Shown: positions 5,804-60,998, numbered from the stretch's first letter. The stretch is DNA of 64,000 nucleotides from Candidatus Spyradenecus sp. (GCA_045634445.1 JAZRAG010000078.1:36-64035), one strand, 5' to 3'. Numbers and translations: made by a program. The notes: generated by a model from the letters alone, not told the origin.

Positions 5804-5827
5804 TGTTTTCTCACGCTATCTGCAAAA

Positions 5828-9760: not shown

Positions 9761-9802
9761 TTATGACAAAAGTCCTAAAATTTCTTTTCTGCTTTTTTGA
9801 AA

Positions 9803-11662: not shown

Positions 11663-11670
11663 ATGTCACC

Positions 11671-15765: not shown

Positions 15766-15767
15766 AA

Positions 15768-15962
15768 TTATTCTCCTGCTCGTCCAGACTTAATCCACAT
15801 ATCCACTTCTGACAGTTTGAATTTTCAGAATTTGCCGATGCGGTGTCCAGGGAGATTTTTCTTTTCAAGGTACACATATATCGTCTCCCGGCGGACACCG
15901 AGATATTCTGCGATTTCTTTGATGAATAGCCATCTGTCTTCTATCAAATCAAGCTTTTTCAT
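15768..15962 (-). pseudogene. Excisionase-like (HTH_17/MerR-type) DNA-binding protein with in-frame TGA
   Basis: Manual translation MKKLDLIEDRWLFIKEIAEYLGVRRETIYVYLEKKNLPGHRIGKF*KFKLSEVDMWIKSGRAGE; TGA at 15825-15827 where this family usually has Trp. Confidence 0.8.
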
Positions 15963-16360
15963 TGCAATATTCCTGAAACGCCCAAACTTTCATTCTTTTG
16001 GAAATAGTGTCACCACATATCGTTCGGGATAATATATCAATATTATCGTGATTTTTCAAACAGAAATGCAAGAAAAAGTGTTAGTTTTATGCAGTTTTTG
16101 CTGGCTTTACTTCATTTTCAGGATGTGTCATGAGAATGGAATCATTCTTGTTGTTCCATATTGCTCAAATGCCTGTTGCAAGTGTTCCTGGTCGGAATCA
16201 CTGTCAGTTGCATCAGGATAATGCGAAACAGGAAGTTCCCGGCAAGAAAGAGTTCCAGCAGAATAAATATATTCTCCATACTCCAGACTGCCGCCTTCTT
16301 CATAACGAAGCAAAAAAGATTTTATGGGGGCAATTTCGTTGAGAAACTTTATCAGCGTAA

Positions 16361-17632: not shown

Positions 17633-18597
17633 GGCGTAGCGGTTACTGCGACATAAGTTTTCTTTTTAAAGAAACATAATATCTCACGAATTAACCCATT
17701 AATCCTTGTCGGATCCTCATCATCCTTTGCCGTATTAACACTCGCATAATCTGCTTCGTCATCCAAAATTAACGTTGGGACACGTAGTGCATTAATCTCA
17801 TTTTGAGAACGCTTAAGCCACTTCTTTAAAGCTGTTAGTACTGTTACATTCCTCTTACAAACAACTACAACAGGAATGTTTCTCTCGAGATTTACATTTC
17901 GCAAATCTAATATTGATTTTCCAACATCGTTATCAAGTATAGTCAAAATTAGCGGCGTCCGGCCTTCATTTTCTGGCCTCTTACCTACGCCAAGAATCTT
18001 TGAGCTATCCGTTGATTGTGCACCAACAAAATCGTTTTCCAAGCGCTCCTGTGTTTGCTTTCTAAGAGCTTCAATAGTTCCTGTTAAAACAATGAAAAGT
18101 TTATATCCAACATCTGCAGCTTTATTCATTAACGCTGTAAAGTTTATTGTCTTACCAGACTGAACATCGCCAAGAATTAAACCTTTTTGATTAAATCCAT
18201 CTAACCCTGGATTTCCGAGAAGGTCCATGATTTTATCACTGGTCTCATCCAGTTTTGTTAACGGACTTTCTTTCGGATTAATTGGATTCACAAATCGGTC
18301 TGCACACTCTGTTTCCAGCTATTCTTTGAATCGATTCCAATAGAAGTGATTAAGCTGTGGTTTTCGTTCTGGATACCACGATTGCAGTCCCTGGTCTACA
18401 ATTGCTCGCCCAGACACCTGCTTTAAATCACACGACGTTTTAAGTTGCTTCTTTTGTATTTCAAAGGCTTCGTCTGAAATATCTTCAATAAGCTTCAACT
18501 TTTCTTTTACTTCTTCAACTATTTCATCAATATCCTTTTCAAAAAGAAAGTCAACACCCCTCTCTTGCATCCGCTTGTGCAACGATCTGCTAACCAT
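17629..18597 (-). pseudogene. Z1-domain helicase-like protein (MzaB-like), internal amber stop and C-terminal truncation
   Basis: GDVQSGKT, LILDDEADYAS, YVAVTATP. In-frame TAG at 18319-18321 separates the two ORFs; reading ends at the transposase start. Confidence 0.8.
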
Positions 18598-30107: not shown

Positions 30108-31658
30108 TTAATGCACTTTCGTATGGGGCGGTAGCTCAGTTGGTAGAGCACCACGTTCGCAACGTGGGTGTCGGCGGTTCGACTCCGCTTCGCTCCACCA
30201 TACAGGAAGAGATGATGAATGAGACGGGTTTTGCCCGTCTTTTTTTGTTTGGAAAGCCTGTAAATTCAGGCTTAGGGCAGACGTGAGGGAGTTGTTGCTG
30301 GAGTTAGAATACGGGGTGACGTGTTTATCCTTTGAAACGGACAAAAGGCCGAAAACGAGAGCCAGGAATGATTGGCGGGCTTGGGGTTGGAGATGTTGCA
30401 GTAAACCCGATGGAGACCTTAATTTTTCAAGGTTTTGCTGGTATTGCGTGATGGCTTTATTGATGCGATATTCCGCATTAATTGGAGAGTTAGACTTTTC
30501 CGTTATGGTTCGGCGGTATTCGGCCGCCTTTCGTTCGTAGGTGGCGTCGTCAATCTTGCCGTCCAGATAGGCATCTGTGAGCTTATCGAGGCGCGTTTGG
30601 GCTTGCGCAACTTCTTTTTCGGCAACGTTTTTTGCCGTGCGTTCGTGGGCGATGATTTCTTTCGCCTTTACCCTGAAAATCTCAATCGCCTTTCCAAGGG
30701 CTTGCATCAGAATTGGCAATTGGTCCAACAGTTCGCGGATTTGTTCGCCGATGATACGATTGCTGACGTTGATATGGTTGTGGCGGCACTTGTAATACAG
30801 GTGACCTTTCGAGCGGTAACCTACTAAGGGCGTGCCGCATTCAGCGCAGATGAGCAAGCCGTGGAATTCCGGAGGATCTGGCACGCGGTGTTGGACGCGC
30901 TTATTGGCCAGGATGACTTCGCGTTCCTCCGGCGTAATCATGCCAGGGAATGCAGCTGGAATTGGTTGGCCGCCTGTGATAGTGCCGCAGATGATACCGG
31001 CGTAAATGTGGCGAGATGGTATTGCGACCGCGCGCTTCGGTGGGATTCCCAGGGATTCACACGTGGCATAATATTGCGCCTTGGTAATGATGCCAGCCGC
31101 GAGAGACTTGAGGGCGTGCTGAAGGATGCGGCCTTTGTCGGTAATCTCAAGAATGGGTAGGCCATCGGGCGCTTTGGTGATTTTGAAGCCCATTGGCGCT
31201 TTGTAGCACCAGCCTCCGCGCATGGCGGTCTCTACCATGCCACGCTTGCAACGGTCTGCGCGTTGCTGATTGTCAAACTGTGCGACCGATAGCAGGAGCG
31301 TGGAGACGAGCTCGCCCACAGGGTCCTGCGTGATGTTTTCGGTGGCCGAAAGCACGTCTGTGCCGTGCTTCTTTAGGGTGGTGCGTAAAACGAGACCGTC
31401 TGAAGTATTGCGAGAGAGTCTATCAAGCTTCCAAACGACAAAGGCGGTCGGTTTTTCGCGTGCGCAAAACTCTAAAGCCTCTTTTAGTGCAGGGCGGTTT
31501 GCGGTTTTTGCCGAAACACCGGCGTCGGTAAACGTGCGAATGACAGAGAGGCCCTGCCGATGGGCAAAAGCCAGGCAATCATTCAGCTGCGAGTCAAGAG
31601 ATGTGCCCGTGACCTGCTCCTCTGATGATACGCGCGTGTATACTACTGCCGTCTTCAT
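30108..31658 (-). CDS. Large serine recombinase (integrase); lysogen form runs antisense through the tRNA
   Basis: YTRVSS catalytic motif, VWKLDRLSRN, recombinase domain, CAECG..YYKC zinc ribbon, coiled coil. Confidence 0.95.
   Translation of the reverse strand: MKTAVVYTRVSSEEQVTGTSLDSQLNDCLAFAHRQGLSVIRTFTDAGVSAKTANRPALKEALEFCAREKPTAFVVWKLDRLSRNTSDGLVLRTTLKKHGTDVLSATENITQDPVGELVSTLLLSVAQFDNQQRADRCKRGMVETAMRGGWCYKAPMGFKITKAPDGLPILEITDKGRILQHALKSLAAGIITKAQYYATCESLGIPPKRAVAIPSRHIYAGIICGTITGGQPIPAAFPGMITPEEREVILANKRVQHRVPDPPEFHGLLICAECGTPLVGYRSKGHLYYKCRHNHINVSNRIIGEQIRELLDQLPILMQALGKAIEIFRVKAKEIIAHERTAKNVAEKEVAQAQTRLDKLTDAYLDGKIDDATYERKAAEYRRTITEKSNSPINAEYRINKAITQYQQNLEKLRSPSGLLQHLQPQARQSFLALVFGLLSVSKDKHVTPYSNSSNNSLTSALSLNLQAFQTKKDGQNPSHSSSLPVWWSEAESNRRHPRCERGALPTELPPHTKVH
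30125..30200 (+). tRNA. tRNA-Ala(CGC)
   Basis: 76-nt cloverleaf; anticodon arm CCACG-TTCGCAA-CGTGG; G3:U70 identity pair; encoded CCA. Confidence 0.97.
30194..30202 (+). other. attL core TCCACCATA
   Basis: Identical 9-mer at 61737..61745; overlaps the tRNA 3' end. Confidence 0.85.
30222..30247 (+). terminator. Phage-supplied intrinsic terminator for the tRNA
   Basis: AGACGGG-TTTT-GCCCGTCT hairpin followed by a T-run. Confidence 0.8.
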
Positions 31659-34419: not shown

Positions 34420-35085
34420 ATGAAAAAGTACAAGCTGACGGAAGAGACGATCAACTTTCGCGGGCATAAATTGCACCGCATTCGCGCTTTGCGCAATTTC
34501 AGCGACGTCAAAAAAGGAGATCTCGGCGGCTTCATCGAAAGCGAGAGCAATCTCGCTCACGAAGACGACTGCTGGGTCTACGGCGATGCGCGGGTCTACG
34601 GCAATGCGCAGGTTTTCTGCGATGCGCGGGTTGGGCACAATGCGACGGTCTACGGAGATGCGCTTGTCCGCGATCAGGCGCGGGTCAACGGCAATGCGGA
34701 GGTCGGCGGCAATGCGTGGGTCGGCGAAAATGCGCGTATCTTTGAGAATGCGTGGGTCCACGACAATACGTCTGTCGGCGGCAATGCGTATATCTTCGGC
34801 AATGCGTGTTTTTCCGGCTATGCGCGGGTCTTCAGCGATGCGCAGATCGAACGAACAAGCGAGTACGTTGTTTTCAAGAATTGGTGGAGCAGCGGTCGCT
34901 ACTTCACGTGGACGCGCTCAAATAACATGTGGTGCGTTGGCTGTTTCTGCGGAACAGGCGAACAACTAATCGCAAAAGCCTACAACGACAGTGAAGAATC
35001 GGGCCGCGAGTATGAGCGCGTGGTCAAGTATGTTGAAAGCATTCTTGCCGATGCAAGAACGAATAAAAAAGGCGGTGAGGAATGA
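34420..35085 (+). CDS. Phage hexapeptide-repeat (left-handed beta-helix-like) protein
   Basis: KYKLT..RIRAL..DLGGFIESE then (GNARVY)n repeats. Confidence 0.85.
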   Translation: MKKYKLTEETINFRGHKLHRIRALRNFSDVKKGDLGGFIESESNLAHEDDCWVYGDARVYGNAQVFCDARVGHNATVYGDALVRDQARVNGNAEVGGNAWVGENARIFENAWVHDNTSVGGNAYIFGNACFSGYARVFSDAQIERTSEYVVFKNWWSSGRYFTWTRSNNMWCVGCFCGTGEQLIAKAYNDSEESGREYERVVKYVESILADARTNKKGGEE

Positions 35086-49805: not shown

Positions 49806-50158
49806 GCGCCGCAGGTGGCATCGACCATCTCGCGGCGGTCGCTCAAGCGTTCGGCCTCTCACTTCCAGCCTCGGCCGATGGCATCGCGGCTCTGACGCCG
49901 TGGCTAGTGCTTCCGCAATGGCTTTCGGCCGCTTTGGCTGACCTTGTGGCGCTGCTGCACAATATCGTTGCATCGTCGGGTGACCAACCCGTCTACCGTG
50001 ATGAAGTGCTCGACTCTTGGGGCCTTGCCACGCTGGCCATTGAACGCCGTCGGGCGTTGGAGGCGGTTCGTAAGGCTGAACAGGTCTCGCCCGATTTGAT
50101 TTCTCTCTTTAACCGATTTAAAAAGGACTCGAAAAATGAAGAAGCCCACAACGAATGA
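49494..50158 (+). CDS. gpGT-like -1 frameshift product
   Basis: The -1 frame is open from 49793 and continuous with ORF 49907..50158. Confidence 0.7.
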
Positions 50159-50309
50159 ATTGATCGCTATCGTACTCGCTATCATCTCGCTCATCGCGTC
50201 GGTTGTAGTGGCCCTATCTGACGGATCTATCTCTGCCGATGAAGCGGCAAAGATTAAGGCCGACGGCGCAAAGGTCGTTGACACGGTAACAGAGGCAGTA
50301 CAGGACTGA
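50136..50309 (+). CDS. Small holin-like membrane protein (57 aa)
   Basis: Manual translation MKKPTTNELIAIVLAIISLIASVVVALSDG...; AAGGA RBS. Confidence 0.6.
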   Translation: MKKPTTNELIAIVLAIISLIASVVVALSDGSISADEAAKIKADGAKVVDTVTEAVQD

Positions 50310-50314
50310 CCGCA

Positions 50315-50629
50315 ATGCACAGTCCTGCCGCTCGCGCATCAGTGGAACGCGTCGCCTCTGGCGACCATTCTCTCGATGCTATCGCACAGCTCTTGATCTG
50401 CCTCAGCGAATGCTTTGAATCTCAGTCGCGCAAGATTGACGTGATCCAGGAAACGGTTCAGAAGCAGGTAAACTTGTACGATACGTGCCCGGCGCGTCAG
50501 CAGCCGTCTAAGCCTGAGGCGCAACACTCCATCAAGTCATGGATACCGATTCTTAAAATCGTCCTTGGGATCGTCTACGCACTTGTGCTTATTCTTGCAG
50601 CTGTCCTCGGTGTAAAGGTCGTCTTATGA
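50315..50629 (+). CDS. Membrane protein with C-terminal TM helix (lysis-associated, putative)
   Basis: Coiled-coil-like body, hydrophobic C-terminus. Confidence 0.55.
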   Translation: MHSPAARASVERVASGDHSLDAIAQLLICLSECFESQSRKIDVIQETVQKQVNLYDTCPARQQPSKPEAQHSIKSWIPILKIVLGIVYALVLILAAVLGVKVVL

Positions 50630-50937
50630 AATGGCTTGCCTTCATCTCTTCGTTAGCTTCACTCGCTCAGGCGTTCGTGGCGTGGTATCAAAATCGTGCC
50701 GCTGACCGTGCAGAGCGCGCCATTCTTGAAGGGGATGAGGATGTCGTCAACAAGGATTTCAACAGACTGCTCCGCTGCATTTTGTTGCTACTTGCCTTGT
50801 GGCTTGTAGCAGCAGGATGCAGTTCTACTCAACCGCCCGCCGAATTGCGCATGCGCCGCATGGAGTGTGACGGCGTGACGGGTTGGTTCGTTCCAGACGC
50901 GCAGATGCTTCGCATCCGTCAGGCGCTTGCGCGTTAG
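50626..50937 (+). CDS. Spanin-like protein with internal lipobox (putative)
   Basis: LLLLALWLVAAGC lipobox-like segment. Confidence 0.5.
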   Translation: MKWLAFISSLASLAQAFVAWYQNRAADRAERAILEGDEDVVNKDFNRLLRCILLLLALWLVAAGCSSTQPPAELRMRRMECDGVTGWFVPDAQMLRIRQALAR

Positions 50938-50986: not shown

Positions 50987-52453
50987 ATGGCCGCCGCCAC
51001 TTCTGTGCGCATGGAACTCCAGGGCAAGGACGCCACCAAAAAGGCGTTCGATTCTGTCGCTCAACGCGCGAAAACTTCTCAAGCCAAAATCGGTGCCGCG
51101 CTCAAGTTTGGCGCAATCGCCCTTGCTGTGGGTGCAGCTGCGAAAAAAATCGGTTCTTCGCTTGATCAACTCAACAAGCTCAACGATATCGCTCAACAAG
51201 CTGGCACGTCTGCAACGTGGCTTCAAAAGTTTACCGGCGCCATGGGTCAGGCTGGCATTAACGTCACGACCGAAGGCCTTGCCGCTTCTATGCAGAAGCT
51301 CAACGCGTCTCTTGTCAATACCGAAAAGCTGAAAGCGTTCGAAAAGCTCGGCGTGGATGTTTCGCATCTCCGTGGCTTGAAGCCTGAGGAGGCGTTTACC
51401 GTCTTTCTCGAAACGGTCTCCAAAATTCCCGATGAACAAGCTCGTCTACTCGTCCTTCAGAAGGGCATGGAAGAGCAGGGGTTACGCCTTGCGCCGTTAT
51501 TGCGCCAGGGCCCTGACGCGTTCCGTGAATCGCTTGCGACTGTCATGGACGCCATGCCTGCCGCATCGGAGTCGACCGTCACGCTCGCGACAAACGCAAA
51601 CAACGCCTTCGCGCTCGTGGGCCAGTCCTTTTCGGCCGTCTGGCAAAACTGTCTCGGCTCTGTCCTCACGTGGGCAGACGAATCCTTTGGCGGCGTGGAT
51701 AAGGCTATTATGGCAACCTGGGAGTATGTACGCTATTTTGCTGCAACTTTCGTTCACTGGTTCCAAACAATGGCCGAATCTGTGCAACAAATCGTCGGAG
51801 TCTTCGCTGGTGACTGGATGGATGGTCTGAAACTCATCGGCGTCCGCATTGCTCAATTGGTGAATCTAATCGCAGGCCCGCTCGTGAGTGCCGTGGCGCG
51901 TGTTGTCGGCCTCTTCGATGAAGATATGGAGCTGGCGATTGAGTCGTTTCGCATTGGAATTGACCAGACGTTGGCCGATTGGGAGTCTGGTATTCTCGAA
52001 AAGCACGGCATGCAGCCGCTCAAGTCGTTCGCTGACCGTATCACGGGGGAGTTCGCCGCAACGCAGGAGCGTATTGCGAAGAACAACAAGATGTTCGACG
52101 CGAAAGCAACGCTCTCCACGGGCAATGCCGTAACCGAATCGCTTCATGCGCTTCCAGAATTGGAAGAGAAAACGAAGAAGTCTGTCAAGAATGGCGTCAA
52201 GGAGGGTCTTGCAGCAGGTATTGAAGCGGGCTCTTACGATGCGCTCAAAGCGACTGCGCGTGCCGCAATGGATGGCGCGCATTTCGCTTCTGGCGGTTCG
52301 TCTTCCGGGTCGTCCTCCTCTTCAATGGGCAAGGTAGCTTCGGCATCTCGCGCCTCTGCTGACCGTCTGTCGGCCATTGAATCTATGATGCGTCAATTAC
52401 TCGAAGTGGTTCGCGGTGGCGCTTCTTCGCTCGCAGCCTTAGAAACATTTTAA
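50987..52453 (+). CDS. Tail tape measure protein (short, 488 aa)
   Basis: LQGKDATKKAFDSV N-terminus, Ala-rich helical repeats, position. Confidence 0.8.
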   Translation: MAAATSVRMELQGKDATKKAFDSVAQRAKTSQAKIGAALKFGAIALAVGAAAKKIGSSLDQLNKLNDIAQQAGTSATWLQKFTGAMGQAGINVTTEGLAASMQKLNASLVNTEKLKAFEKLGVDVSHLRGLKPEEAFTVFLETVSKIPDEQARLLVLQKGMEEQGLRLAPLLRQGPDAFRESLATVMDAMPAASESTVTLATNANNAFALVGQSFSAVWQNCLGSVLTWADESFGGVDKAIMATWEYVRYFAATFVHWFQTMAESVQQIVGVFAGDWMDGLKLIGVRIAQLVNLIAGPLVSAVARVVGLFDEDMELAIESFRIGIDQTLADWESGILEKHGMQPLKSFADRITGEFAATQERIAKNNKMFDAKATLSTGNAVTESLHALPELEEKTKKSVKNGVKEGLAAGIEAGSYDALKATARAAMDGAHFASGGSSSGSSSSSMGKVASASRASADRLSAIESMMRQLLEVVRGGASSLAALETF

Positions 52454-52469
52454 AAAAAGGAGTCAAAAA

Positions 52470-53144
52470 ATGTCTACGATTTATTGCCGCTTGTCCTACG
52501 GCTCTCTCTCGTTCCGTCCCGAAACGCTTGCCGTGCCTTCTGAGGTGACGTTTGAGGTGTCGGGCTTGCCACCTGGCCGTCAGTGTGATCTCATTATCGC
52601 GGAACCCCGCAAGCTCACGCCGCTTGCAGCTGCACAGATTACCGCGGCGGGCCGTTGCACGATTAATACGAATACGGACGCATTCCGCGCGCTGTTCTCC
52701 GGTGACCATTTCAACGCCAAAACCGTCCTCGTGCAGATTGGTACGCCGTCCGAATTGCTTGCGTCTGGCCTCGTGGTGGCGCGTTGGAATATGCTCGCGT
52801 CTGATGACGTGCCACCTGCGCCCGCGCCAAATACGCGTTGGCTCACTGATGCCGATTATCGTGACCTCGCATCGTCTATCGCTGGCGCTCAGTTGCAGGC
52901 TTCTGAAGATGCTGCCGCGCTCACCGTGCGGTTGGACGAACAGGCCAAATCCTTGAAGGAAAAGGCAGATGCCGCCACGCTCGCTTCTGTGACTGAGCGC
53001 GTCGCCACGCTCGAAAAGAAGCCCACCATCGATGACGCGATTCTGATGCGTGTGCGCGCATTCGACGCAAACACGGCAACGGTTGACGGTCTCTGGCAAC
53101 AGGTCGCTGACCTTTCCACGATTCTTTCTGCGTTGGTGAGGTAA
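52470..53144 (+). CDS. Phage tail-module protein
   Basis: Position; C-terminal coiled coil (ERVATLEK). Confidence 0.55.
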   Translation: MSTIYCRLSYGSLSFRPETLAVPSEVTFEVSGLPPGRQCDLIIAEPRKLTPLAAAQITAAGRCTINTNTDAFRALFSGDHFNAKTVLVQIGTPSELLASGLVVARWNMLASDDVPPAPAPNTRWLTDADYRDLASSIAGAQLQASEDAAALTVRLDEQAKSLKEKADAATLASVTERVATLEKKPTIDDAILMRVRAFDANTATVDGLWQQVADLSTILSALVR

Positions 53145-53147
53145 GCC

Positions 53148-54101
53148 ATGGCGGCCGTAGCTTATCCGTTGATTGCCGAAATAATCGGCCGAACCGCGTC
53201 ACTGACGCCGCGTGCAGAGTCGAACGCTGCGCGTCGTCAGTGGAAGGTGGTCTACGACGTCTCTCCAACATCTCTGCCTGACCCGCAGACGATTGCCGGG
53301 CTTCCGCGTTTGGGTGACGCGCACCCTGTCGTTCCCGGCGTATTCCTCAAGACGTGGGAAATCACAGAGGAAGAAGCCGGTGCATTCGTTCTAACTGCGT
53401 CCTATGCGCCGCCGGATGAAAAGGATGCCGGTAGCGGTGGCGATGAAGAGGATGAGACGGTTGAGGAAGTTGAGACGGCGCGCGGATGGGCTGGTGGTGA
53501 ATCGTCCAAGGACCTCACCGCCGATGCCGTGACGGGTGAGGCTGTCCTTCTTCCGACAGGTGAGCCGTTCGGGAGCGTTCCATCGGTCTCTGTCTCAACG
53601 ATGACATTCTCTGTCTCGCGTAAATGCGTTGATCTTGACACGGATGCGCTCGCCGCGAATTGCACGGTGAACGCACAGGTTGTCACGATTGACGGAATCA
53701 CTGTCGCAAAGCACTGCGGCCGTCTCACCGTCTCCACGAAGCGTATCTACGACTCGCTCGTTTACAAGTGGGAAATCACCTTTTCGGTCAATATCGTCTC
53801 GAATCCTGTTAAGCTCACGCCTGATGGCAATATGGAAGATATCGGGCACGATGTGGCACTCTTGCTGAGTGGCTTCCGCTTTTTCCGCACGATTGGTGAA
53901 GGGGGTGGTAACGCTGGTGATAAAGAATTGGTCAAAGCGACAGAAATTGATGAAGAGACTGGCGAAGAAAAACCAGCCTCTGCGCCGGTGTTGTTGACGC
54001 CAACGGGCGAAAAGCATACGCCAGCCGCCGCAGGTCAGGCGTATTACAAACGTTATTCTGCGATTAAGGAGGCAACATGGTCCGCTGCATGGTTCCGTTA
54101 A
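53148..54101 (+). CDS. Phage tail/baseplate-module protein
   Basis: GLPRLGDAHP motif; position. Confidence 0.55.
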   Translation: MAAVAYPLIAEIIGRTASLTPRAESNAARRQWKVVYDVSPTSLPDPQTIAGLPRLGDAHPVVPGVFLKTWEITEEEAGAFVLTASYAPPDEKDAGSGGDEEDETVEEVETARGWAGGESSKDLTADAVTGEAVLLPTGEPFGSVPSVSVSTMTFSVSRKCVDLDTDALAANCTVNAQVVTIDGITVAKHCGRLTVSTKRIYDSLVYKWEITFSVNIVSNPVKLTPDGNMEDIGHDVALLLSGFRFFRTIGEGGGNAGDKELVKATEIDEETGEEKPASAPVLLTPTGEKHTPAAAGQAYYKRYSAIKEATWSAAWFR

Positions 54102-57100
54102 TTCTCATCCTCTGCGCTTTCACGCTTCATGCAGAGTCTACGCGTTTCGGTGCGCTCGGTCGAAACGACACCGTCGTCACGAAAGAGTCTGATCCTATCG
54201 CTTCGGCCGCCATCGCGTCTGAGGCATCTGCGCGTCAGTCCGCTGTGACGGATCTAACGAATAAAATCAACGCCGAATCTGCCGCTCGCACGCAAGCTTT
54301 TTCGTCGGTTGAGGCGCAACTTGAGGCGCTAAACGTCAAAAAGCAGGACGCGGTCGTCTCGTTTTCGTCCGTCGATAACACGGGTGTGAACGTAGGAGAT
54401 TCGAACGCCACCGGCGCATTGGATCACATGTCCGGCATCTCGTGGATTAAAGGGTCGCTGTCTGCTTTCGGTCTTGGCGATAGGGCCGTTGAGCCGTCCG
54501 CAATCACGCTGTTCAGGCGTTCTGGCACAACGACCAATCAGAATGCGTCTCGCATCCTACGCCTTTTGCGTTGGAATGGATCCGCCTGGTACGTGGCGTA
54601 TCAGGCAGTGAGTCCTGTCGTTCACAATGATGTCACGATTAATGGTGGCCGCATTGAGCATCGCATGGAGTATATCGCAGGGTCTGCTCGCATTCCAGCA
54701 GATGAAACGATTGTCCTTTGCTACGCGCCCGCCAAATCGTCGCCCGTGACGGCTGTGCTTGATTTTGGCGCGAAGGTGATGGCAGCAACCGGCACGCGCT
54801 ATCTCGCAACGGGTCAATCGTCCACGCCTGCGTCTCCGTCTACCGCCGCAGGATGGGCTCAGATCTTGGCGATGGAATTAACGGTGACGGAATACAAGGA
54901 TGCAATCGCTGTACTTGCTTCACGCGTTGAAGCGATCGCCGCCTCTGCCGAATCCGCACAGAGCGTGGCCGAATCTGCGTCTGTCTCCGCTTCTGACGCT
55001 GTTGCAACTGCCGATTCAGCTAAAGCGTCTGCGTCTACAGCCTCTCTTGCCGCGGACGGGGCACGTGTAATCGCACAGTCTGCCGTCTCAACTGCTCAAT
55101 CGGCACGGGCAACGGCCGAAAGCGCACTGGCAAAGGCTTCCTCTGTTGAAAAGACCGCCAATGCCGCCGCCACCGCTTCTGACGTGGCCGTTCTGTCTGA
55201 ACGTGTGACTGCACTTGAGGGTCGTCCGTCTGGTGACTCGGGCCTTTCGGAGCGTATCGCAAAGGTTGAAGCTTCCATCTCTACAGTATCGGAGACCGCC
55301 ACGGCCGCTTCTGCTGCTGCTGCTTCTGCTTCTACCGTTGCAGAATCGGCCAAAACAACCGCCACAGCCGCTTCCGCAACCGCCGAATCGGCCAAAACAT
55401 CCGCTTCCACCGCTCAGGCGTTGGCCGAAAGTGCCGCTTCTGCCGCCGAAAAAGCGCAATCGGCCGCCTCTGAAGCGTCCACCACCGCATCTGCCGCATT
55501 GTCGAAAGTTTCCACCGTTGAAAAGACGGCCAATGCCGCCGCCACGGCTGCCGCTGTAGCAACCCTTTCTGACCGCGTGACGTCTCTCGAAAATCGCCCG
55601 TCTGGCGGTGTGTCCGACGCAGATCTTGCCGCCGAAACTTCCGCACGAAAGGCGGCTGACGCTGACCTGTCCGCACGCATTGAGTCTGTCGCTAACAATG
55701 CAGCAGGAAAGGCGACGGTCGCAACGCTTCAGGCGCAACTCTCCTCGCTTCAGTGGGATGTGTCTGACAATACCACTGCCATTTCTGCCGCTCAAAAGAC
55801 GGCTTCTGATGCCGCCGCAGGTGTTGCCACGGCTCAGTCTAAGGCGAATACTGCCGCATCTGACGCCGCTACGGCCTTGACGCGGGCGAATGCAGCAGAT
55901 GCTACCGCGTCTACGATTGGCGCACAGGTGGCAGAGATTCACGCAATCGCAGCTGAAGCAGAGACCGCTGTGAATTCTGTCACCGCGCTCGCCCAACAGG
56001 CCGCCACCGATGCTGAGGCCGCTTACCGTGCCACCAATTGGGTGACCAATGACGTCGCCACGATTAAAGCTGATTACAAGGAGTTGAGGAGTGGCGTCAT
56101 CGCGCGTGCGCGCACCGAGTGGTTCAGCTTCACAAATCAGAATAGCCATCTCGGATGGCCTGGCACAACCAATCGTAAATCCGAAATCTTCATCAACAAT
56201 TATACTTATGATGGCGCGTATATGACCGTCCAAACGGGCGATGGCTTGAAGCATTCGTCTGAACCGTGGGGTGAGGGTTATCGGCGCTATATCGAAGTGG
56301 ATTGGTCGTATGTGGATGACACGTCGTGGATCTACCGCAACGCTTGGACGTTGCAGGCTTCGCCCGCTGGCGTGACGCAGTCTGTCTCTAATGCCACCGT
56401 CTCCACGACGGATGAGTTCGGTCGTGTCATGTCTACCGCGACCGTGACCACTACCACCACGCAGGATGCCGCCGTTGAGGTGGTGATAGTTGACCCTCTT
56501 GGCGACCCTCCAATCATCACGTCGTGGTCAGGCTCGGAGGGGGCAACCATCTCTCAATTGGATGGCGCGATGGGTGCATCTGTCTCTGCAAGTGAGATGT
56601 CGCTCGTTGAGGTGTCTGCCTATGATTACCGTAGCAAGTCCACGCAGTCGGTCTTCGTTCCGATTCGTCAGTCGTCTTCTACAAGTGTTGAGCAGACAGT
56701 ATACGCCGCTGACGTGCCTGGCACCGCACGCGCAACCGCGAATGATGCCATCTTGACTGCACTGGCGCAACGTGATGCATCGTCCACCGTCGCATCGGGA
56801 GTGACCCCTGCGGTCGCGTCAAGTGATTTCATCTTCGCGCAGCCTGGCATTAGGCCCACCTTCGCCGCGCAGTCTCCGCTCGCAACGTCTTTCGTCAATT
56901 TCTCGCAGACGGACATCATTTGGCGTGTATCATGCGTTCCGGTCTCCCCGCATTACGCGGTCACCGCTTCGCATTGGTTCGATAGGAAAGATTGGTCATC
57001 GGTTGGCCCAATGTATGCGCCTTCCACCGGCAATGGCGAATATTTTTCAATCGCGGAGGGCGTTGACCTCTCCGCTTGGGCGCGCGCGAACGGGTACTCT

Positions 57101-57595
57101 GAATCGGAAATCAATGAGGCGCGTATAGCAGACCTCTATGTCTATCGTGTCACAAGTAGTTATGCCGCAGGTCCAGAGGCGTTCGAGGATGGAATCATCC
57201 CATACGTCATGGATCGGTCAGCGTTGGATTACTATTACGGTGGCTCGCTTGAGGGCGTCGCGTGCTATGCGTTGACGCAGAATCTATGTCTTTCGTATTC
57301 CGCGTTTTCGTCGCCCTATGGCGACCGTTGGTCTCCCTTCGGTCGTGAGTATGATCCGAAGGTGGTCCGCGCCGATATCCTCGGTGGATTGGCCAATTGT
57401 GCCCGTATCTATGGCGGCGACAGCGGCCGCCCCATCTGCATGGTTCACGATAACAAGCCTGTGGTGGTATCGGTCTTCTCCACGCGTGAGAAGGGCCCTT
57501 CGCTGACCTGTGGCGCGCAGATTCTTGACGCTTTTATTCAGCAACACTCCGGCGGCACAGAATCCCTCAAACGAATCTCTGCCCCCACCGAATAA
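54077..57595 (+). CDS. Tail fibre-like protein: signal peptide, Ala-rich coiled-coil stalk, C-terminal trypsin-like serine protease domain
   Basis: AAGGAGG RBS; MVRCMVPLILILCAFTLHA; internal repeat at a 372-bp offset; TASH/ADL/GDSGRP. Confidence 0.75.
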   Translation: MVRCMVPLILILCAFTLHAESTRFGALGRNDTVVTKESDPIASAAIASEASARQSAVTDLTNKINAESAARTQAFSSVEAQLEALNVKKQDAVVSFSSVDNTGVNVGDSNATGALDHMSGISWIKGSLSAFGLGDRAVEPSAITLFRRSGTTTNQNASRILRLLRWNGSAWYVAYQAVSPVVHNDVTINGGRIEHRMEYIAGSARIPADETIVLCYAPAKSSPVTAVLDFGAKVMAATGTRYLATGQSSTPASPSTAAGWAQILAMELTVTEYKDAIAVLASRVEAIAASAESAQSVAESASVSASDAVATADSAKASASTASLAADGARVIAQSAVSTAQSARATAESALAKASSVEKTANAAATASDVAVLSERVTALEGRPSGDSGLSERIAKVEASISTVSETATAASAAAASASTVAESAKTTATAASATAESAKTSASTAQALAESAASAAEKAQSAASEASTTASAALSKVSTVEKTANAAATAAAVATLSDRVTSLENRPSGGVSDADLAAETSARKAADADLSARIESVANNAAGKATVATLQAQLSSLQWDVSDNTTAISAAQKTASDAAAGVATAQSKANTAASDAATALTRANAADATASTIGAQVAEIHAIAAEAETAVNSVTALAQQAATDAEAAYRATNWVTNDVATIKADYKELRSGVIARARTEWFSFTNQNSHLGWPGTTNRKSEIFINNYTYDGAYMTVQTGDGLKHSSEPWGEGYRRYIEVDWSYVDDTSWIYRNAWTLQASPAGVTQSVSNATVSTTDEFGRVMSTATVTTTTTQDAAVEVVIVDPLGDPPIITSWSGSEGATISQLDGAMGASVSASEMSLVEVSAYDYRSKSTQSVFVPIRQSSSTSVEQTVYAADVPGTARATANDAILTALAQRDASSTVASGVTPAVASSDFIFAQPGIRPTFAAQSPLATSFVNFSQTDIIWRVSCVPVSPHYAVTASHWFDRKDWSSVGPMYAPSTGNGEYFSIAEGVDLSAWARANGYSESEINEARIADLYVYRVTSSYAAGPEAFEDGIIPYVMDRSALDYYYGGSLEGVACYALTQNLCLSYSAFSSPYGDRWSPFGREYDPKVVRADILGGLANCARIYGGDSGRPICMVHDNKPVVVSVFSTREKGPSLTCGAQILDAFIQQHSGGTESLKRISAPTE

Positions 57596-57610
57596 GGAAG
57601 GACATGCTCC

Positions 57611-58768
57611 ATGAAAAAAGTACTCGTTTGCGTTTTACTCCTAAGCGTTGGCGCGCTTCACGCGAAGGCGCTTTTGCGCGAAACTTCTCCGCTTCAAAAT
57701 CGCGTCCAAGCTGTTCCTGATAAGGAGCTCGTTTTCGCGCGTGGCGCTGAGGGCACCGTCTCCGCTTATATCGGGCTCGACGGTGGCACAGCCCAGGTGA
57801 TTGACCCTTCTGCCATTCGCGTGACGCGTACAACGCCCTTTGATGTTGCAGAAATCTTCGTGGATGATATCGATGCAACAGCGATAGTCGAGGTCGCGGG
57901 CAAGGGTATCGCTTACAAGGGACCGCTCACCATCACCAATATCCACAAAGAGGCCATCGGTCGCATTGAGTCTGAACAGTACCAACTCGGTGGCGCTTCG
58001 GTGCCCGCGACGAATGAGATGTCGGTCTCCATTAATGGGTTCACGGCGACCGTCAATATCACCGGTGCTGGTCCTGGTCTCTTTCTCAAGGTCTATCCCG
58101 CTGCGCCCGACACCTCTGTGGATCTGACGCAGAATGACGTCGTGCTGACGGACTCTGTCGGTCAGGTGCGCTTTTCGCAGCTGCGTCAAAACATGATCGA
58201 ACGCACCAACGGCAATCTCGGTCAAGACTGGGCGAAATTTCCTGCTACTTCATCCGTAGACCTTGCGGATAATATCCTTCTTTTTGGCCGCGATTCCGGC
58301 TCTGCATTGCAAGGCAGTGCAGGCCAGATTGCAATCTATGCGGGCGCGCAACCTGCTATCGTAGCCGAAACTAAAGGCGATGGAGGCGGTGCAACGTCTG
58401 GTACAATTCTCGTAAACGATTTATCCCTTGGGCCTGATACGGTCACGCTCTCTGTCGTGGCTGCCGGCATTCCTGTGGAGGCGCTCACGCTTCAGTATTC
58501 TCCCACGCTCACAGACGCTACGTGGCTGGCTGTCGCAGGGACGAATATCACCGCCAATGCTGACGGCTCCCTTACAGTCACCGCGCCGCGCTCAACGTCT
58601 AATAAGGCGGGTTTTTGGCGCTTGATTGCGGATGATACCGTTTCCACCGTTGTGACGGTCAACGGCGACCTGAGCGTCCTCGGTGGTATCATCATGCAGT
58701 CGCCCAATGGCACGAAATGGCGCATCACCGTCACCGATGACGGTACGCTTTCCGTCACGGGAGTCTAA
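57611..58768 (+). CDS. Signal-peptide-bearing beta-rich tail-module protein
   Basis: MKKVLVCVLLLSVGALHA; C-terminal SPNGTKWRITVTDDGTL motif. Confidence 0.7.
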   Translation: MKKVLVCVLLLSVGALHAKALLRETSPLQNRVQAVPDKELVFARGAEGTVSAYIGLDGGTAQVIDPSAIRVTRTTPFDVAEIFVDDIDATAIVEVAGKGIAYKGPLTITNIHKEAIGRIESEQYQLGGASVPATNEMSVSINGFTATVNITGAGPGLFLKVYPAAPDTSVDLTQNDVVLTDSVGQVRFSQLRQNMIERTNGNLGQDWAKFPATSSVDLADNILLFGRDSGSALQGSAGQIAIYAGAQPAIVAETKGDGGGATSGTILVNDLSLGPDTVTLSVVAAGIPVEALTLQYSPTLTDATWLAVAGTNITANADGSLTVTAPRSTSNKAGFWRLIADDTVSTVVTVNGDLSVLGGIIMQSPNGTKWRITVTDDGTLSVTGV

Positions 58769-58770
58769 CG

Positions 58771-59154
58771 ATGTCAATGCCTGATAATTACGAGACGCTC
58801 TGCCGCCGCTTGGCAAACATTTGCAATGCGCCCGTGTATGTGCTCAAGCGTGAATTTGCGCGCGAGGCAAACAAGCGCCACGTGCGCCCAATTCTCGTTG
58901 CACGTGAGCGTCTCCATTGCCTCGCGCGCTGGTCTTTCCAACGCATCACCAATGCCGTCTGCCGTGACGGTGGCACGCTTCGCCACCTGCCGCACGAGGC
59001 CGTCGTACCCCTTGCGCGCGCCATGAAAAAGGCTGCGCTCCGTGGCGGCGATGTGCAGCAGTATTATAGAGAGTACTGCGAAGAGGCTCAGTTGGAATAC
59101 GGGCTGAGGCTCGATCAAGAGGAAGGAGTTGTCAATGGCGCTTCTAACATCTAA
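58771..59154 (+). CDS. Phage hypothetical protein
   Basis: Operon context. Confidence 0.55.
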   Translation: MSMPDNYETLCRRLANICNAPVYVLKREFAREANKRHVRPILVARERLHCLARWSFQRITNAVCRDGGTLRHLPHEAVVPLARAMKKAALRGGDVQQYYREYCEEAQLEYGLRLDQEEGVVNGASNI

Positions 59155-59848
59155 AGCAACCGCGCATCAAATCCTCTCGCTCCTTCAAAAGGGTACGCGC
59201 ATCCCTTCTCGTCAGGCTTTCACGCCTCAAACGAGCGCAAACTCAAAACTGCATCCGTGGAAGGTCCGCTATTCAACGTTGCGCAAGGCGTATATCGTCT
59301 ATATTCCAGCGGGCGCGGTCGCGGGCGTAGATTTGAATCTGACGGAACTCACAAAGGATACGACGCTCACCGATTGGTACGTTGTTGACGTCTCCGCTCT
59401 TGAAGATCCAACAAAACTCGTGCTTTATCTTTACGGCGATAAAGTGTCCTTCACCGCGCCTGACCCGCATGAAGCTGACGCGGAAAAGCCGTCCTTCACG
59501 TGCCTCATTGCGGAGATTACCGATATCTCTGGAACGCCGCCCGGTAAGATCGTGGTAAAGCAGATTGTGACGTCTACAATCTCGCTCGGCGGTGGGAGCG
59601 TTGCCTTCTACGCCCCAGGGCCGCTAAAGGTGGAAACCGTTGACGGTAGCACGTACATCGTCCAACGCTGGACGCTCGTCAATGGCACTACCATCACAGA
59701 AGTGGACGACCAGGGAATTCCTGACGACGACCGCACACCGCGCTTCCCCGCGGGTCTCAATGCGGACAAGGTCTACGCCGCCAAATTCCCGCTCGTGCCG
59801 CACGTGAACGACCACGCAGATGGTGTGGTCGTGGAAAAGGACGCTTAA
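59129..59848 (+). CDS. Phage tail-module hypothetical protein
   Basis: LHPWKVRY motif; RBS AAGGAG. Confidence 0.55.
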   Translation: MSMALLTSKATAHQILSLLQKGTRIPSRQAFTPQTSANSKLHPWKVRYSTLRKAYIVYIPAGAVAGVDLNLTELTKDTTLTDWYVVDVSALEDPTKLVLYLYGDKVSFTAPDPHEADAEKPSFTCLIAEITDISGTPPGKIVVKQIVTSTISLGGGSVAFYAPGPLKVETVDGSTYIVQRWTLVNGTTITEVDDQGIPDDDRTPRFPAGLNADKVYAAKFPLVPHVNDHADGVVVEKDA

Positions 59849-59851
59849 CCT

Positions 59852-60901
59852 ATGCCTCGCACCATCTTTCGTGTGCCGCCAAAAACCCCGTTGTCGCTCG
59901 TTACCGCGCAACGGGGTGACGAGCTTCGTCTGGTGTCGGGTGCAACCACCAAGCCCTCCGTCCTGCGGTCGGGCTATGTACCCTTGGCAATGGTCGTGAA
60001 CCACGACATGACGCGCGATATTGCAAATGGCAATCCCGCGAACCGCACCGACTTCTCCCAGGGAATCTTTGAGGACGAAACCTTTGAAGATTATGAAGAA
60101 ACGCGCAACACGAACGCGCCGAGATTTCTGCGTTACTTCATCGGCGTCTCTGAAGGCAACGTCATAGTGCCCGACGATGTCACCTATGGCGACAGCAAGT
60201 ATGTCGCGCTCCTGCGAGCGAACAAGGCGAAAGCCAAACAATGCCTCCTCACCGCCTTGAATGCCGCTCCAGCAACCTTTGACCCAACAGCCTATCTGTT
60301 CCAAGACGAACCCTGCGACCCCTTCGCCTATTTGCGCGAAGCATCCTTCACTCAGCCGGTCGCAACGGAGAGTGTCTCCTACAGCGACTCCGTCTCCGCA
60401 CGCCGATGGTCCGCGGAACTGTCGCACGTCATCGGCCCGATGCGCGGCATCCTCTTCCCTGGCGCAACGTCAGGCGCGTGCGTGAAAGCAACTGTGGACA
60501 TCACCGAAGCGAGCCTCCGCCTTCAGTATGATTATCAGAATACCGGCGGTGTCTCACTCGCGCCAGAATTAATCCTGTTAACTTTTGGCCATCCCTTTGA
60601 CGGCCAATGGCCACGCGCACAAATGCCAGCCACAGCCCACGCCACGCTCCCCTTGGGAACGATACCCTTCAACGGAGCAGAAGGCACCTTTGACGCAGAG
60701 CCCACCGCCATCGAAGTAGAATTCACCGTCCCCGCCTCACGCTTCATCGTGCCCATCATCAAATGGACACCAACCGTCGCCTCCATCCTCTCCTCCTACT
60801 GCCCCGAAATCACCGGCCCCGACGGCGTCCCCTACAACGCATACCTCAGTCTCACCAGCGAAGCCACCATCACCCTCTCCGACACCGATATCAGAAAATA
60901 A
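59852..60901 (+). CDS. Phage hypothetical protein (last gene of late operon)
   Basis: 349-aa ORF 3 bp after the preceding stop. Confidence 0.6.
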   Translation: MPRTIFRVPPKTPLSLVTAQRGDELRLVSGATTKPSVLRSGYVPLAMVVNHDMTRDIANGNPANRTDFSQGIFEDETFEDYEETRNTNAPRFLRYFIGVSEGNVIVPDDVTYGDSKYVALLRANKAKAKQCLLTALNAAPATFDPTAYLFQDEPCDPFAYLREASFTQPVATESVSYSDSVSARRWSAELSHVIGPMRGILFPGATSGACVKATVDITEASLRLQYDYQNTGGVSLAPELILLTFGHPFDGQWPRAQMPATAHATLPLGTIPFNGAEGTFDAEPTAIEVEFTVPASRFIVPIIKWTPTVASILSSYCPEITGPDGVPYNAYLSLTSEATITLSDTDIRK

Positions 60902-60998
60902 GAAGCCCAGCGCCTTACGCAACGCTGGGCAGTGCGGAAAAACCGAATCGCACAATCAAAAAAATAGCATAAAAAAATAAAAAAGTCAAAAATAGTGC

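Follow-up and report, generated by a model that had tools for sequence, protein, structure and literature searches.

Can two neighbouring late genes of a tailed prophage encode exported proteins, given that the structural proteins of tailed phages normally assemble in the cytoplasm and lack signal peptides? An earlier note, made from sequence alone, pointed to two adjacent genes with apparent Sec-type signal peptides in a 64,000-nt stretch of DNA from Candidatus Spyradenecus sp. (GCA_045634445.1, JAZRAG010000078.1; hereafter the window). It proposed that the products are exported, fold in the periplasm and are added to virions at release, or act on the envelope for lysis, or are lysogenic surface factors, possibly by an undescribed assembly or exit route. 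We found both ORFs, geneA (54077-57595, + strand, 1172 aa) and geneB (57611-58768, + strand, 385 aa), each starting with a Sec-type signal peptide, and the observation is thus confirmed. The interpretation was supported only in part: the signals are real, evolutionarily conserved features of late, structural-operon genes and geneA looks like a fibre, but no result shows that either protein is a virion component or that a new assembly or exit route exists.

The start sites were inspected because downstream true starts had been named as a finding that would overturn the observation. geneA is preceded by AAGGAGG at 54066-72, 4 nt before the ATG at 54077, and geneB by AAGGAAGGA at 57594-602, 8 nt before the ATG at 57611; in both genes the next in-frame Met that is not inside the hydrophobic segment lies more than 100 codons downstream. 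The N-terminus of geneA is MVRCMVPLILILCAFTLHA∧ES (∧, likely cleavage point; signal residues 1-19, 54077-54133, + strand) and that of geneB is MKKVLVCVLLLSVGALHAKA∧LL (residues 1-20, 57611-57670, + strand). Each has a basic n-region, a hydrophobic core of 12-14 residues and small residues at -1/-3, and neither has a lipobox or a twin-arginine motif, which disfavours lipoprotein and Tat signals. For comparison with chance we used a crude hydrophobicity and -3/-1 test written for this analysis; SignalP was not run. The best 9-residue Kyte-Doolittle mean was 3.04 for geneA and 3.28 for geneB, starting at residue 5 in both, whereas among 49 other window proteins only two membrane proteins reached 3.0. 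A lax version of the test flagged 9 of the 49 other proteins.

A survey of relatives, which had also been proposed in advance as a check, showed that the signals are conserved. geneB relatives formed 60 clusters at E<=1e-3, and all 54 full-length family members (16-79% identity) passed the lax test, although the signal sequence itself drifts. A conserved mature start, (L/I)LR(E/Q)TS / xxPxTS, directly follows the signal, and by register with the homologues geneB is more likely cleaved at AKA∧LL (residues 20/21) than at LHA∧KA (residue 18), the site given in the note. The LHA motif that the note found in both proteins occurs only in the closest relatives and is not a family feature. For geneA, seven relatives were aligned, and the N-terminal signal is conserved in the related proteins P0002-P0006, including the 36%-identical P0006 (MFRFAFLSLLLLTVACVHA∧DS). 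Relatives in the related loci L004, L006-L009 and L011 instead have an internal N-in/C-out hydrophobic segment, 55-195 residues from the N-terminus in several of them, with basic residues before it, acidic residues after it, and an AxA-like site following it, an alternative signal-anchor that the note had missed.

The pair sits in the tightly packed late operon of a ~31-kb temperate siphovirus-like prophage (30.1-61.7 kb), and a 31,157-bp circularly permuted contig of the same phage was found. Related prophages occur in Kiritimatiellae MAGs. Terminase, portal, prohead protease and capsid-position genes lie further upstream, and the tail genes immediately upstream (50987-54101, + strand) are a tape-measure-like gene (50987-52453; PHROG tape-measure families at E 3.5e-14), a 224-aa gene (52470-53144) and a 317-aa gene (53148-54101) that geneA overlaps by 25 nt. 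The gaps on either side of geneB are 2-15 nt. Downstream (58771-60930, + strand) follow the genes of a variable cassette, of 127 aa (58771-59154), 239 aa (59129/59135-59848) and 349 aa (59852-60901), and a terminator-like hairpin at 60905-60930; homologues of these genes follow geneB in L001, L006-L009 and L015-L017 but are only 29-47% identical. The G+C content of the pair is 56-58%, as in the rest of the late operon, and no promoter or terminator around the genes exceeded the shuffled expectation. Lysis-like membrane-protein genes at 50136-50937 (+ strand) are linked to the pair in all backbones, with homologues lying next to geneA/geneB in L004 and L006-L009; they encode a 57-aa single-TM protein, a 104-aa tail-anchored protein and a 103-aa o-spanin-like ORF (50626-50937) with lipobox LVAAGC and a 38-aa mature part.

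We next asked what the two proteins are. No Pfam, PHROG, NCBIfam, PADLOC or PDB sequence match was found for geneA. The coiled-coil stalk claimed in the note is supported: an Ala/Ser/Thr-rich segmented region of about residues 276-655 (54902-56041, + strand; 33% Ala) showed autocorrelation of hydrophobic residues over residues 280-660 with z 6.4 at lag 7 and z 5.0 at lag 14. Local heptad power was high at residues 274-340, 400-470 and 547-650, and runs of invariant Ala are spaced 3-4-3-4. An AlphaFold2 model of residues 690-1172 suggested Ig-like beta-sandwich domains at about residues 703-879 (56183-56713, + strand), with a Foldseek match to the Ig-like C-terminal domain of the lambda tail tube protein gpV (2l04, probability 0.99). 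It also suggested, at about residues 940-1172 (56894-57592, + strand), a chymotrypsin-fold (PA clan) serine-protease-like domain that the note had missed. The top Foldseek hits of the latter were the plasminogen protease domain, TMPRSS2, PRSS57, PR3, chymotrypsin and SplA (probability 0.96-1.00, E 2e-4 to 5e-2), although the model of this region has only moderate confidence (pLDDT 72, from 8 sequences) and no Pfam peptidase match, Trypsin and Trypsin_2 included, was obtained at E<=0.1. The triad His966 (56972-56974), Asp1019 (57131-57133) and Ser1116 (57422-57424), in chymotrypsin order and spacing and with a GGDSG motif, is invariant in the 7-8 close relatives. In a wider alignment of 10 sequences the His and the D-S of GDSG are invariant and Asp1019 is kept in 9, one sequence having Asn, while the most divergent relatives have GDSS or YDSS in place of GDSG.

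For geneB, AlphaFold2 gave an all-beta model (pLDDT 84) of about three beta-sandwich domains with only generic Ig-like fold matches, and no known family was identified. The tail motif SPNGTKWRITVTDDGTL reported in the note is conserved within the family but could not be tied to any named tail protein; the only links are PHROG matches at E 0.005-0.04 to families of unknown function and a 46-residue structural match to an uncharacterised cyanophage protein. A C-terminal beta-hairpin module (58682-58765, + strand; GGIIMQSPNGTKWRITVTDDGTLSVTGV) is conserved across the family, with weak matches to PHROG 25009/574 and the 46-residue structural match at 35% identity. The note's disulfide rationale for periplasmic folding is weak. 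Its statement that the larger protein has several Cys is true, since mature geneA has 7, but only C1063 is invariant, and mature geneB has none.

Comparison of loci revealed tail-fibre-like mosaicism. geneA residues 1-600 are 84-98% identical to P0002, P0003 and P0005, whereas residues 600-1172 are 14-68% identical. In L001 the tape-measure, 224-aa and 317-aa genes are 88-97% identical, but geneB and the three downstream genes are only 29-47% identical. geneB diverges together with the swapped part of geneA, being 75-79% identical where the geneA mid-region is about 40% identical and 42% where it is about 20%, on two comparisons only. The two genes also form a conserved adjacent pair, not noticed in the note, across very different phage backbones: a lambda-type portal with a ClpP-type protease, a lambda-type portal with an S49 protease, an SU10-type portal and an LPD3-bearing element, in hosts with G+C from 33 to 66%. 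In the L008/L009 type, however, the pair follows the terminase and small membrane-protein genes rather than recognisable tail genes.

Based on these results, our preferred reading, which is tentative and rated slightly below even, is that geneA and geneB form a host-surface-targeting fibre-protease and its partner. The host is probably a Kiritimatiellae (PVC) bacterium with two membranes. In this view, geneA is a long fibre with a short N-terminal region, a beta domain, the segmented coiled coil of about 380 residues, Ig-like domains and the protease at its tip. Bacteria almost always make S1-type proteases outside the cytoplasm, a point not tested here, and the phage would export the fibre and its partner through the Sec translocon during late infection, perhaps because such a protease cannot be made safely in the cytoplasm. 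In the periplasm they would fold out of reach of cytoplasmic and virion proteins, and holin/spanin-type lysis would then release them to act, free or docked on tails, on the surface of the next host cell as a host-range determinant, binding it and probably cleaving a surface protein. Part of this phage's host-contact machinery thus seems to be made outside the cytoplasm. No tailed phage is known to export a tail fibre, and literature searches found none. The genes, their operon context, the signal features and their family-wide conservation, the predicted folds with the catalytic triad, the pairing and the mosaic pattern rest directly on the analysis, whereas actual export and cleavage, protease activity, an extracellular target and any attachment to the virion are inferred, as no virion, proteomic or export experiment exists. 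We consider export itself likely, action on the next host's surface after lysis possible but slightly less likely than not, and physical joining of the virion unlikely. In relatives with a 55-195-residue N-terminal domain before the hydrophobic segment, signal-peptidase cleavage would separate that domain from the fibre, and without cleavage the fibre would stay membrane-anchored; neither outcome fits simple virion attachment. In addition, no homology to any named tail-fibre family was found, and the 239-aa and 349-aa downstream proteins could be the real receptor-binding proteins.

The main alternative, which we consider unlikely but not negligible, is that the exported pair acts on the producing cell's own envelope and is not a host-recognition organelle. 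The protease would cut peptidoglycan peptides or proteins that tether the outer membrane to the wall, replacing the missing endolysin or assisting the spanins, or it would destroy the phage receptor, so that progeny are not lost on debris and superinfection is blocked, with geneB as its periplasmic partner or inhibitor. Pfam, PHROG and NCBIfam searches found no canonical endolysin in the window prophage or in any related locus, and holin-like, tail-anchored and o-spanin-like small genes lie within a few genes of the pair in three different gene orders. The internal anchors of the L004, L006 and L011 relatives are 44-56% Gly/Ala/Ser/Thr, as in signal-anchor-release domains, and Sec- or SAR-exported endolysins are an established precedent. 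A variable enzymatic C-terminus followed by a co-varying signal-bearing protein also resembles periplasmic toxin-immunity pairs and T4 gp5/Spackle. On the other hand, a protein of more than 1000 residues with about 380 residues of coiled coil plus Ig-like domains is far longer than the periplasm is wide, an architecture typical of adsorption fibres and not of lysins, and the N-conserved, C-swapped mosaic is the classic tail-fibre pattern. In the window the pair is separated from the lysis-like genes by the tape-measure gene and two tail genes, there is no evidence of muralytic specificity, and geneB is large and has family-wide invariant residues (Asp181, Arg192 and Trp207), unlike typical immunity proteins. 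Of the options in the note, action on the envelope for lysis and addition to virions at release both remain open.

The third option, a lysogenic surface factor, is disfavoured. Signal-bearing genes near tail-fibre genes are a recognised moron pattern, as for lom and bor in lambda or cor and llp next to tail genes, and such genes could give the host a secreted protease or adhesin. In L001-L003 a prophage remnant that lost its head and replication genes still keeps the whole tail-to-end block intact in at least three samples, but it also keeps the tape-measure and other tail genes and does not single out these two. The absence of a promoter or terminator of their own, the uniform G+C, the overlapping or abutting reading frames, the same neighbours in very different phages and a mosaic breakpoint inside geneA make this reading very unlikely. 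It is about equally improbable that the hydrophobic segments are fusogenic elements of virion tail-tip proteins, hidden inside the tail until infection as in T5 pb2, although the overall plan of geneA resembles pb2, the segment is internal in several relatives and the genes lie among tail genes. The 54 geneB relatives keep the complete tripartite design of basic start, hydrophobic core and small -3/-1 residues while the sequence drifts freely, as signal peptides and not structural helices evolve; the charge distribution around every geneA segment follows the positive-inside rule for N-in/C-out insertion; such N-termini would be captured by the Sec/SRP machinery of any two-membrane host; and a separate tape-measure protein exists. 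Least likely of all, with nothing found in its favour, is an annotation artefact with true starts downstream, in which the apparent signal peptides would be untranslated or belong to another frame, given the strong ribosome-binding sites at the right distance, the lack of a nearby alternative start, conservation of the signals as protein, with conservative substitutions, down to 36% identity for geneA and 16% for geneB, and the strongly conserved mature N-terminus immediately after the signal.

Among known systems, the fibre and downstream assembly/adhesin gene cassettes of tailed phages (lambda stf-tfa, P2 H-G, T4 gp37-gp38) share the position at the distal end of the late operon after the tape-measure and tip genes, a fibrous, repeat-rich protein with Ig-like domains, a conserved N-terminal and exchanged C-terminal part, and a downstream gene that diverges with the exchanged part. 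Here, however, both proteins carry Sec export signals, the predicted tip is a chymotrypsin-fold protease, and no sequence or profile similarity to any named fibre or chaperone family was found. Sec-exported and SAR endolysins (Oenococcus phage fOg44 Lys44, P1 Lyz, phage 21 R) are likewise late hydrolases delivered to the periplasm before lysis by an N-terminal signal peptide or a weakly hydrophobic anchor, but they are 150-450-aa muramidases or amidases, whereas geneA has no muralytic domain and a fibre-like mosaic pattern. Secreted bacterial S1 proteases such as staphylococcal SplA and alpha-lytic protease share the double beta-barrel fold, the His-Asp-Ser order and spacing with a GDSG motif, and an export signal, but the domain in geneA is fused to the end of a coiled-coil fibre encoded in a phage structural operon. 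T5 pb2, a straight fibre/tape measure, is also a protein of about 1200 aa with a long coiled coil, a hydrophobic segment and a C-terminal peptidase domain, but its fusogenic segments are not N-terminal signal peptides, its peptidase is a metallopeptidase, and geneB has no counterpart there. Finally, spanins (Rz/Rz1) and periplasmic exclusion or immunity proteins (T4 Spackle; T5 Llp, Cor) are targeted to the envelope by a signal anchor, signal peptide or lipobox, and they share with the geneA family a type II topology with a periplasmic coiled coil in some relatives and signal-bearing genes next to tail genes; those proteins are small (40-150 aa), whereas geneA of the window has a cleavable signal rather than an anchor, the window already has an o-spanin-like lipoprotein, and geneA and geneB are not separate transcription units.

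We examined the sequence surrounding geneA, which codes for the predicted fibre-protease, and geneB, which codes for its predicted beta-sandwich partner. The two genes lie in a prophage of about 31 kb, extending from roughly 30.1 to 61.7 kb, with a G+C content of about 0.57. The prophage begins with a large serine recombinase gene (30108-31658, minus strand), which ends antisense over a tRNA-Ala(CGC) gene (30125-30200), the apparent integration site, although no long direct repeats were found at the prophage ends. This is followed by genes for a primase, a lambda-gpA-like large terminase, a lambda-family portal and a ClpP-type prohead protease, by small head-tail genes, by three small membrane-protein genes (50136-50937), by a tape-measure-like gene (50987-52453; PHROG E 3.5e-14), by genes of 224 and 317 aa, by geneA and geneB, and by three more genes of 127, 239 and 349 aa. 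A strong hairpin lies at 60905-60930, and rpsA follows on the other strand. An early-region gene (34420-35085) encodes a hexapeptide-repeat / YdcK beta-solenoid protein with a very strong match to PHROG 7964 (E 6e-79), a family of unknown function. Outside the prophage, a block of low G+C (0.32-0.41) at positions 1-18000 carries defence-type genes, namely a GmrSD restriction enzyme (5828-7831, minus strand), an SF1 helicase with DUF2726 (2309-4429, minus strand) and a double-HATPase protein (13402-15765, minus strand), and looks like a horizontally acquired defence island next to host DNA with a G+C of 0.49-0.53.

A metagenomic contig of 31,157 bp (L015) carries the same gene set in circular permutation. 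In this contig, the end of the late operon is followed directly by the recombinase and the early genes, with no tRNA, indicating that an excised or free form of the phage also exists. Two related prophages lie in Kiritimatiellae MAGs from water-buffalo colon and sheep rectum. Host assignment is indirect, and a PVC-group host with two membranes is therefore an inference. It is consistent with the o-spanin-like lipoprotein gene in the lysis-like trio upstream of the tape-measure gene. This trio comprises a 57-aa single-TM protein, a 104-aa tail-anchored protein and a 103-aa ORF (50626-50937) with the lipobox LVAAGC and a 38-aa mature part, resembling an o-spanin, preceded in frame by a 45-residue amphipathic extension. 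In a relative integrated at tRNA-Ala(GGC) (locus L001, 6297-16983; also L002 and L003), about 19 kb has been lost, from inside the recombinase gene to inside the lipoprotein gene, which removes all replication and head genes, whereas every gene from the tape measure to the end of the operon is still intact in at least three samples. Since L001 and L002 carry the tail-to-end block without head genes, we considered that it might be a stand-alone tail module. However, the locus proved to be a prophage remnant with an internal deletion that joins a recombinase fragment to a truncated lipoprotein gene, and this idea was rejected. The remnant could reflect a recent deletion or a retained (domesticated) tail-end module.

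The earlier note had described Sec-type signal peptides at the start of both proteins, and this observation was confirmed, as both ORFs and both N-termini are as it described. GeneA has AAGGAGG 4 nt before its ATG and overlaps the upstream gene by 25 nt, and geneB has AAGGAAGGA 8 nt before its ATG. The geneA signal consists of a basic n-region MVR, the hydrophobic core CMVPLILILCAFTL and a c-region HA↓ES (↓ marks the putative cleavage site), and that of geneB of MKK, the core VLVCVLLLSVGAL and HAKA↓LL. The Cys residues within the signals (C4 and C13 of geneA, C7 of geneB) are preceded by L/V and not by G/A/S, and there is no RR motif, so that neither protein has a lipobox or a twin-arginine motif. 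A prepilin-type signal is also absent by inspection. We scored each protein by the best 9-residue mean Kyte-Doolittle hydropathy within its first 45 residues. GeneA and geneB scored 3.04 and 3.28, respectively, starting at residue 5, and only two obvious membrane proteins among the other 49 proteins of the window reached 3.0. These scores come from a crude test written for this analysis; no trained predictor such as SignalP 6 was applied, and neither export nor processing was assayed.

A survey of related prophages for conserved signals, which the note had proposed as a check, provided the decisive evidence. GeneA has only a handful of relatives in 5.8 billion proteins. Of these, P0002 to P0006 keep the N-terminal signal, including P0006 at 36% identity, which has MFRFAFLSLLLLTVACVHA↓DS, followed by the conserved ...GALGRNDTV..KESDP. 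GeneB belongs to a family of 60 clusters at 50% identity. Every one of the 54 full-length members, at 16-79% identity, begins with a basic residue, a hydrophobic core and small residues at -3/-1, whereas the same lax test flags 9 of 49 other proteins of the window (18%). Within the signal the sequence drifts freely, and directly after it comes a conserved mature start, (L/I)LR(E/Q)TS in close relatives and xxPxTS in distant ones. By that register, geneB of the window is more likely cut at AKA↓LL than at LHA↓KA, the site suggested in the note. The geneA relatives in loci L004, L006-L009 and L011 at first seemed to lack an export signal, but on inspection each was found to carry an internal hydrophobic segment 55-195 residues from the N-terminus, with basic residues before it, acidic residues after it and an AxA-like site. 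Examples are ...SALKG-TATLVAVAVSAMLMA↓ESLTGTEGE and ...ALKDFG-LCFVAVFALAASA↓TEWQD. An N-in/C-out export or anchor element is thus a family-wide property of geneA too.

In the more distant phages, the small gene that follows geneB also starts with a signal peptide (MTTAEALAISLLCLVSAFALA↓DD in L011, 11293-11646; MKRISAIVLAAILAASVPAYA↓AD in L010, 3549-3950), giving three signal-bearing proteins in a row, whereas the 127-aa gene at that position in the window has no signal. The extreme N-terminus of geneA in the L006-L009 type (residues 1-25, MKQAQETSDFYPTRRAGEAPPE) and the mature start of geneB (LLRETS..QNQVAAPPDGE) share an ETS...APP(D/E) pattern, which could be a common docking motif or a coincidence; its significance was not calculated. 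By eye, the 224-aa protein of the window (52470-53144) resembles the cytoplasmic N-terminal domain of the fused geneA forms in L004 and L011, and it ends ...LSTILSALVR, like their pre-membrane helix ...GILSALKG, which hinted at a split gene. However, Smith-Waterman scores against shuffled sequences gave z of only 1.0-1.7, which is not significant, and this idea was dropped.

In geneA, the signal is followed by a short conserved region, a beta-rich domain and an Ala/Ser/Thr-rich stalk of about 380 residues, in which hydrophobic positions repeat every seven residues. A global Fourier test for heptads was weak, but the autocorrelation test was clear (z 6.4 at lag 7 and z 5.0 at lag 14). There are three coiled-coil segments, broken at the ...EGRPSG and ...ENRPSGG motifs. 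A tandem-repeat search found no DNA repeat in geneA, and a 388-aa antisense ORF inside its Ala-rich part (55088-56254, minus strand) is most likely a by-product of the G+C-rich, repetitive alanine codons and not a gene. An AlphaFold2 model of residues 690-1172 shows Ig-like sandwiches followed by a two-barrel domain; the confidence of this model, built from eight sequences, is moderate (pLDDT 72, pTM 0.72). Foldseek matched the two-barrel domain to S1 proteases (plasminogen, TMPRSS2, PRSS57, PR3, chymotrypsin and SplA) with probability 0.96-1.00 and a TM-score of up to 0.54 on the target, and matched one sandwich to the Ig-like C-terminal domain of the lambda tail tube protein. His966 (PHYAVTASHW), Asp1019 (ADLYVY) and Ser1116 (GGDSGRP) stand in chymotrypsin order and spacing and are invariant in close relatives. 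In the wider alignment, H and DS are invariant in all 10 sequences and D is kept in 9 of 10; in the two most divergent relatives the motif reads GDSS or YDSS, and one has Asn for the Asp. The predicted domain therefore has the fold and the triad of a PA-clan (S1-like) protease, but belongs to no described family, as no Pfam or NCBIfam profile matched at E<=0.1 or 0.05 and a profile search of the PDB found no protease. GeneB, modelled from 50 sequences (pLDDT 84), is predicted to be all-beta, with about three sandwich domains, one helix and a conserved C-terminal hairpin. Fold searches with this model returned only generic Ig-like matches (antibodies) and uncharacterised phage proteins, from which no function follows.

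Searches of Pfam, PHROGs, NCBIfam and PADLOC with geneA, geneB and their neighbours gave nothing, except for the tape-measure hits of the upstream 488-aa gene and weak hits of geneB to PHROG families of unknown function. Sequence and profile searches of the PDB also gave nothing. No relatives were found in IMG/VR with patterns from the geneB family and the geneA C-terminal domain, and a tblastn search of 50,697 phage records (INPHARED, from GenBank), carried out for geneB only, gave no match. A metagenome scan added two loci of already known types. The family is rare. No description of exported tail fibres or of Kiritimatiellae phages of this type was found in literature searches.

In every locus where the upstream gene could be read, a geneA-type protein with the C-terminal protease-like domain sits directly upstream of a geneB-type protein (L013 keeps only its last 62 residues). 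The backbones differ widely: a lambda-type portal with ClpP-type protease (the window and L015), a lambda-type portal with S49 protease (L004), an SU10-type portal, where a PHROG 437 virion structural protein lies just upstream (L011), an element with a giant LPD3 protein (L006), loci in which the pair follows the terminase and small membrane-protein genes (L008 and L009), and contigs whose G+C ranges from 33 to 66% (L013, L014 and L010). In the window, the pair lies in the tail module as part of the late operon, with tightly spaced genes and the tape-measure gene three genes upstream. Between the window and its closest relatives, the tape-measure, 224-aa and 317-aa proteins are 88-97% identical. 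Residues 1-600 of geneA are 84-98% identical (about 90%), but identity falls to 14-68% from about residue 600, and geneB and the three following genes are only 29-47% identical. GeneB is 75-79% identical where the geneA mid-region is about 40% identical, and 42% identical where it is about 20%. A conserved proximal part, a swapped distal part and a co-varying downstream gene are the signature of host-range cassettes.

The note had offered three roles for the two proteins, namely addition to virions at release, action on the envelope for lysis, or a lysogenic surface factor, and our results support this interpretation only in part. The analysis itself establishes two late genes with conserved export signals, a fibre with a predicted protease tip, a co-varying beta-sandwich partner, and linkage to holin-like and spanin-like genes; the mechanism that follows is inferred from them. 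Bacterial chymotrypsin-fold proteases are almost always made outside the cytoplasm, and a phage using one as its fibre tip would need to keep it away from cytoplasmic and virion proteins. We therefore propose that the fibre and its partner are exported during late infection, fold in the periplasm and are set free by lysis. They would then act on the surface of the next host as a host-range determinant, either after docking on released tails or as free fibres. Post-lysis docking is physically plausible, since fibres or tailspikes can be added in vitro to fibreless particles of T4 and P22. We regard export as likely and the extracellular host-targeting role as a tentative reading. Attachment to the virion is doubtful. 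Neither a virion proteome nor a cultured host exists, and complexes were not modelled. In the boldest form of this proposal, which we also consider doubtful, tailed phages of PVC-group bacteria make their distal host-recognition fibre, tipped with an S1-type protease, and its partner in the periplasm by Sec export, and tails assembled in the cytoplasm acquire these fibres only when lysis merges the compartments, an extracytoplasmic step in tailed-phage morphogenesis that has not been described.

The main alternative, which we consider possible but not likely, is that the pair acts on the envelope of the producer cell, as a lysis helper, an endolysin substitute, or a factor for receptor destruction or exclusion. 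In agreement with this, no canonical endolysin was found in this prophage or in any of its relatives, the small membrane-protein genes travel with the pair in three different gene orders, and the internal anchors are rich in Gly/Ala/Ser/Thr, as in SAR domains. However, the very long fibre architecture and the mosaic pattern argue against it. It is unlikely that the hydrophobic segments are fusogenic elements of a virion protein, as in T5 pb2, given the complete tripartite signal design in 54 of 54 geneB relatives. A moron or lysogenic-conversion role is similarly unlikely: promoter- and terminator-like sites are not above shuffled expectation and none brackets the genes, their G+C (0.56-0.58) is that of the neighbouring genes, and the reading frames overlap or abut. 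A wrong start, which the note had named as a possible refutation, is very unlikely. The cytoplasmic N-terminal domains of 55-195 residues in some geneA relatives, which signal-peptidase cleavage would sever from the fibre, and the position of the pair after the terminase in L008 and L009 fit none of these explanations cleanly.

Textbook tailed-phage assembly is entirely cytoplasmic, and exported phage late proteins are known only as lysis proteins, exclusion proteins or morons. Here, an export signal is a conserved, family-wide property of a fibre-like protein with host-range-type mosaicism and of its partner. If the fibre ends up on virions, this would add a new compartment to phage morphogenesis, and it would also explain how a phage can carry a dangerous S1-type protease as a 'depolymerase'. 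If the pair instead acts on the envelope of the producer, it would be a new kind of lysis or exclusion factor, in phages that lack any recognisable endolysin. Either way, the finding defines two uncharacterised protein families in phages of a barely studied gut phylum.

The pair is not a demonstrable member of any described family. No homology to a described tail-fibre, tail-spike or chaperone family was detected in the searches, and no lysozyme, amidase, transglycosylase or cell-wall peptidase profile matched geneA or geneB, while the protease fold does not by itself show peptidoglycan specificity. With respect to i-spanins, which are small type II inner-membrane proteins with a periplasmic coiled coil that pair with an outer-membrane lipoprotein, the observations point both ways and do not settle the relationship: some geneA relatives have N-in/C-out anchors and a coiled coil, and an o-spanin-like gene exists at 50626-50937, but the window protein has a cleavable signal and the family is 5-8 times larger than known i-spanins. 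The pair would be categorically new only if export followed by virion incorporation were shown. As it stands, it works most like a tail-fibre-plus-chaperone host-range cassette, and it shares the export logic of Sec/SAR endolysins.
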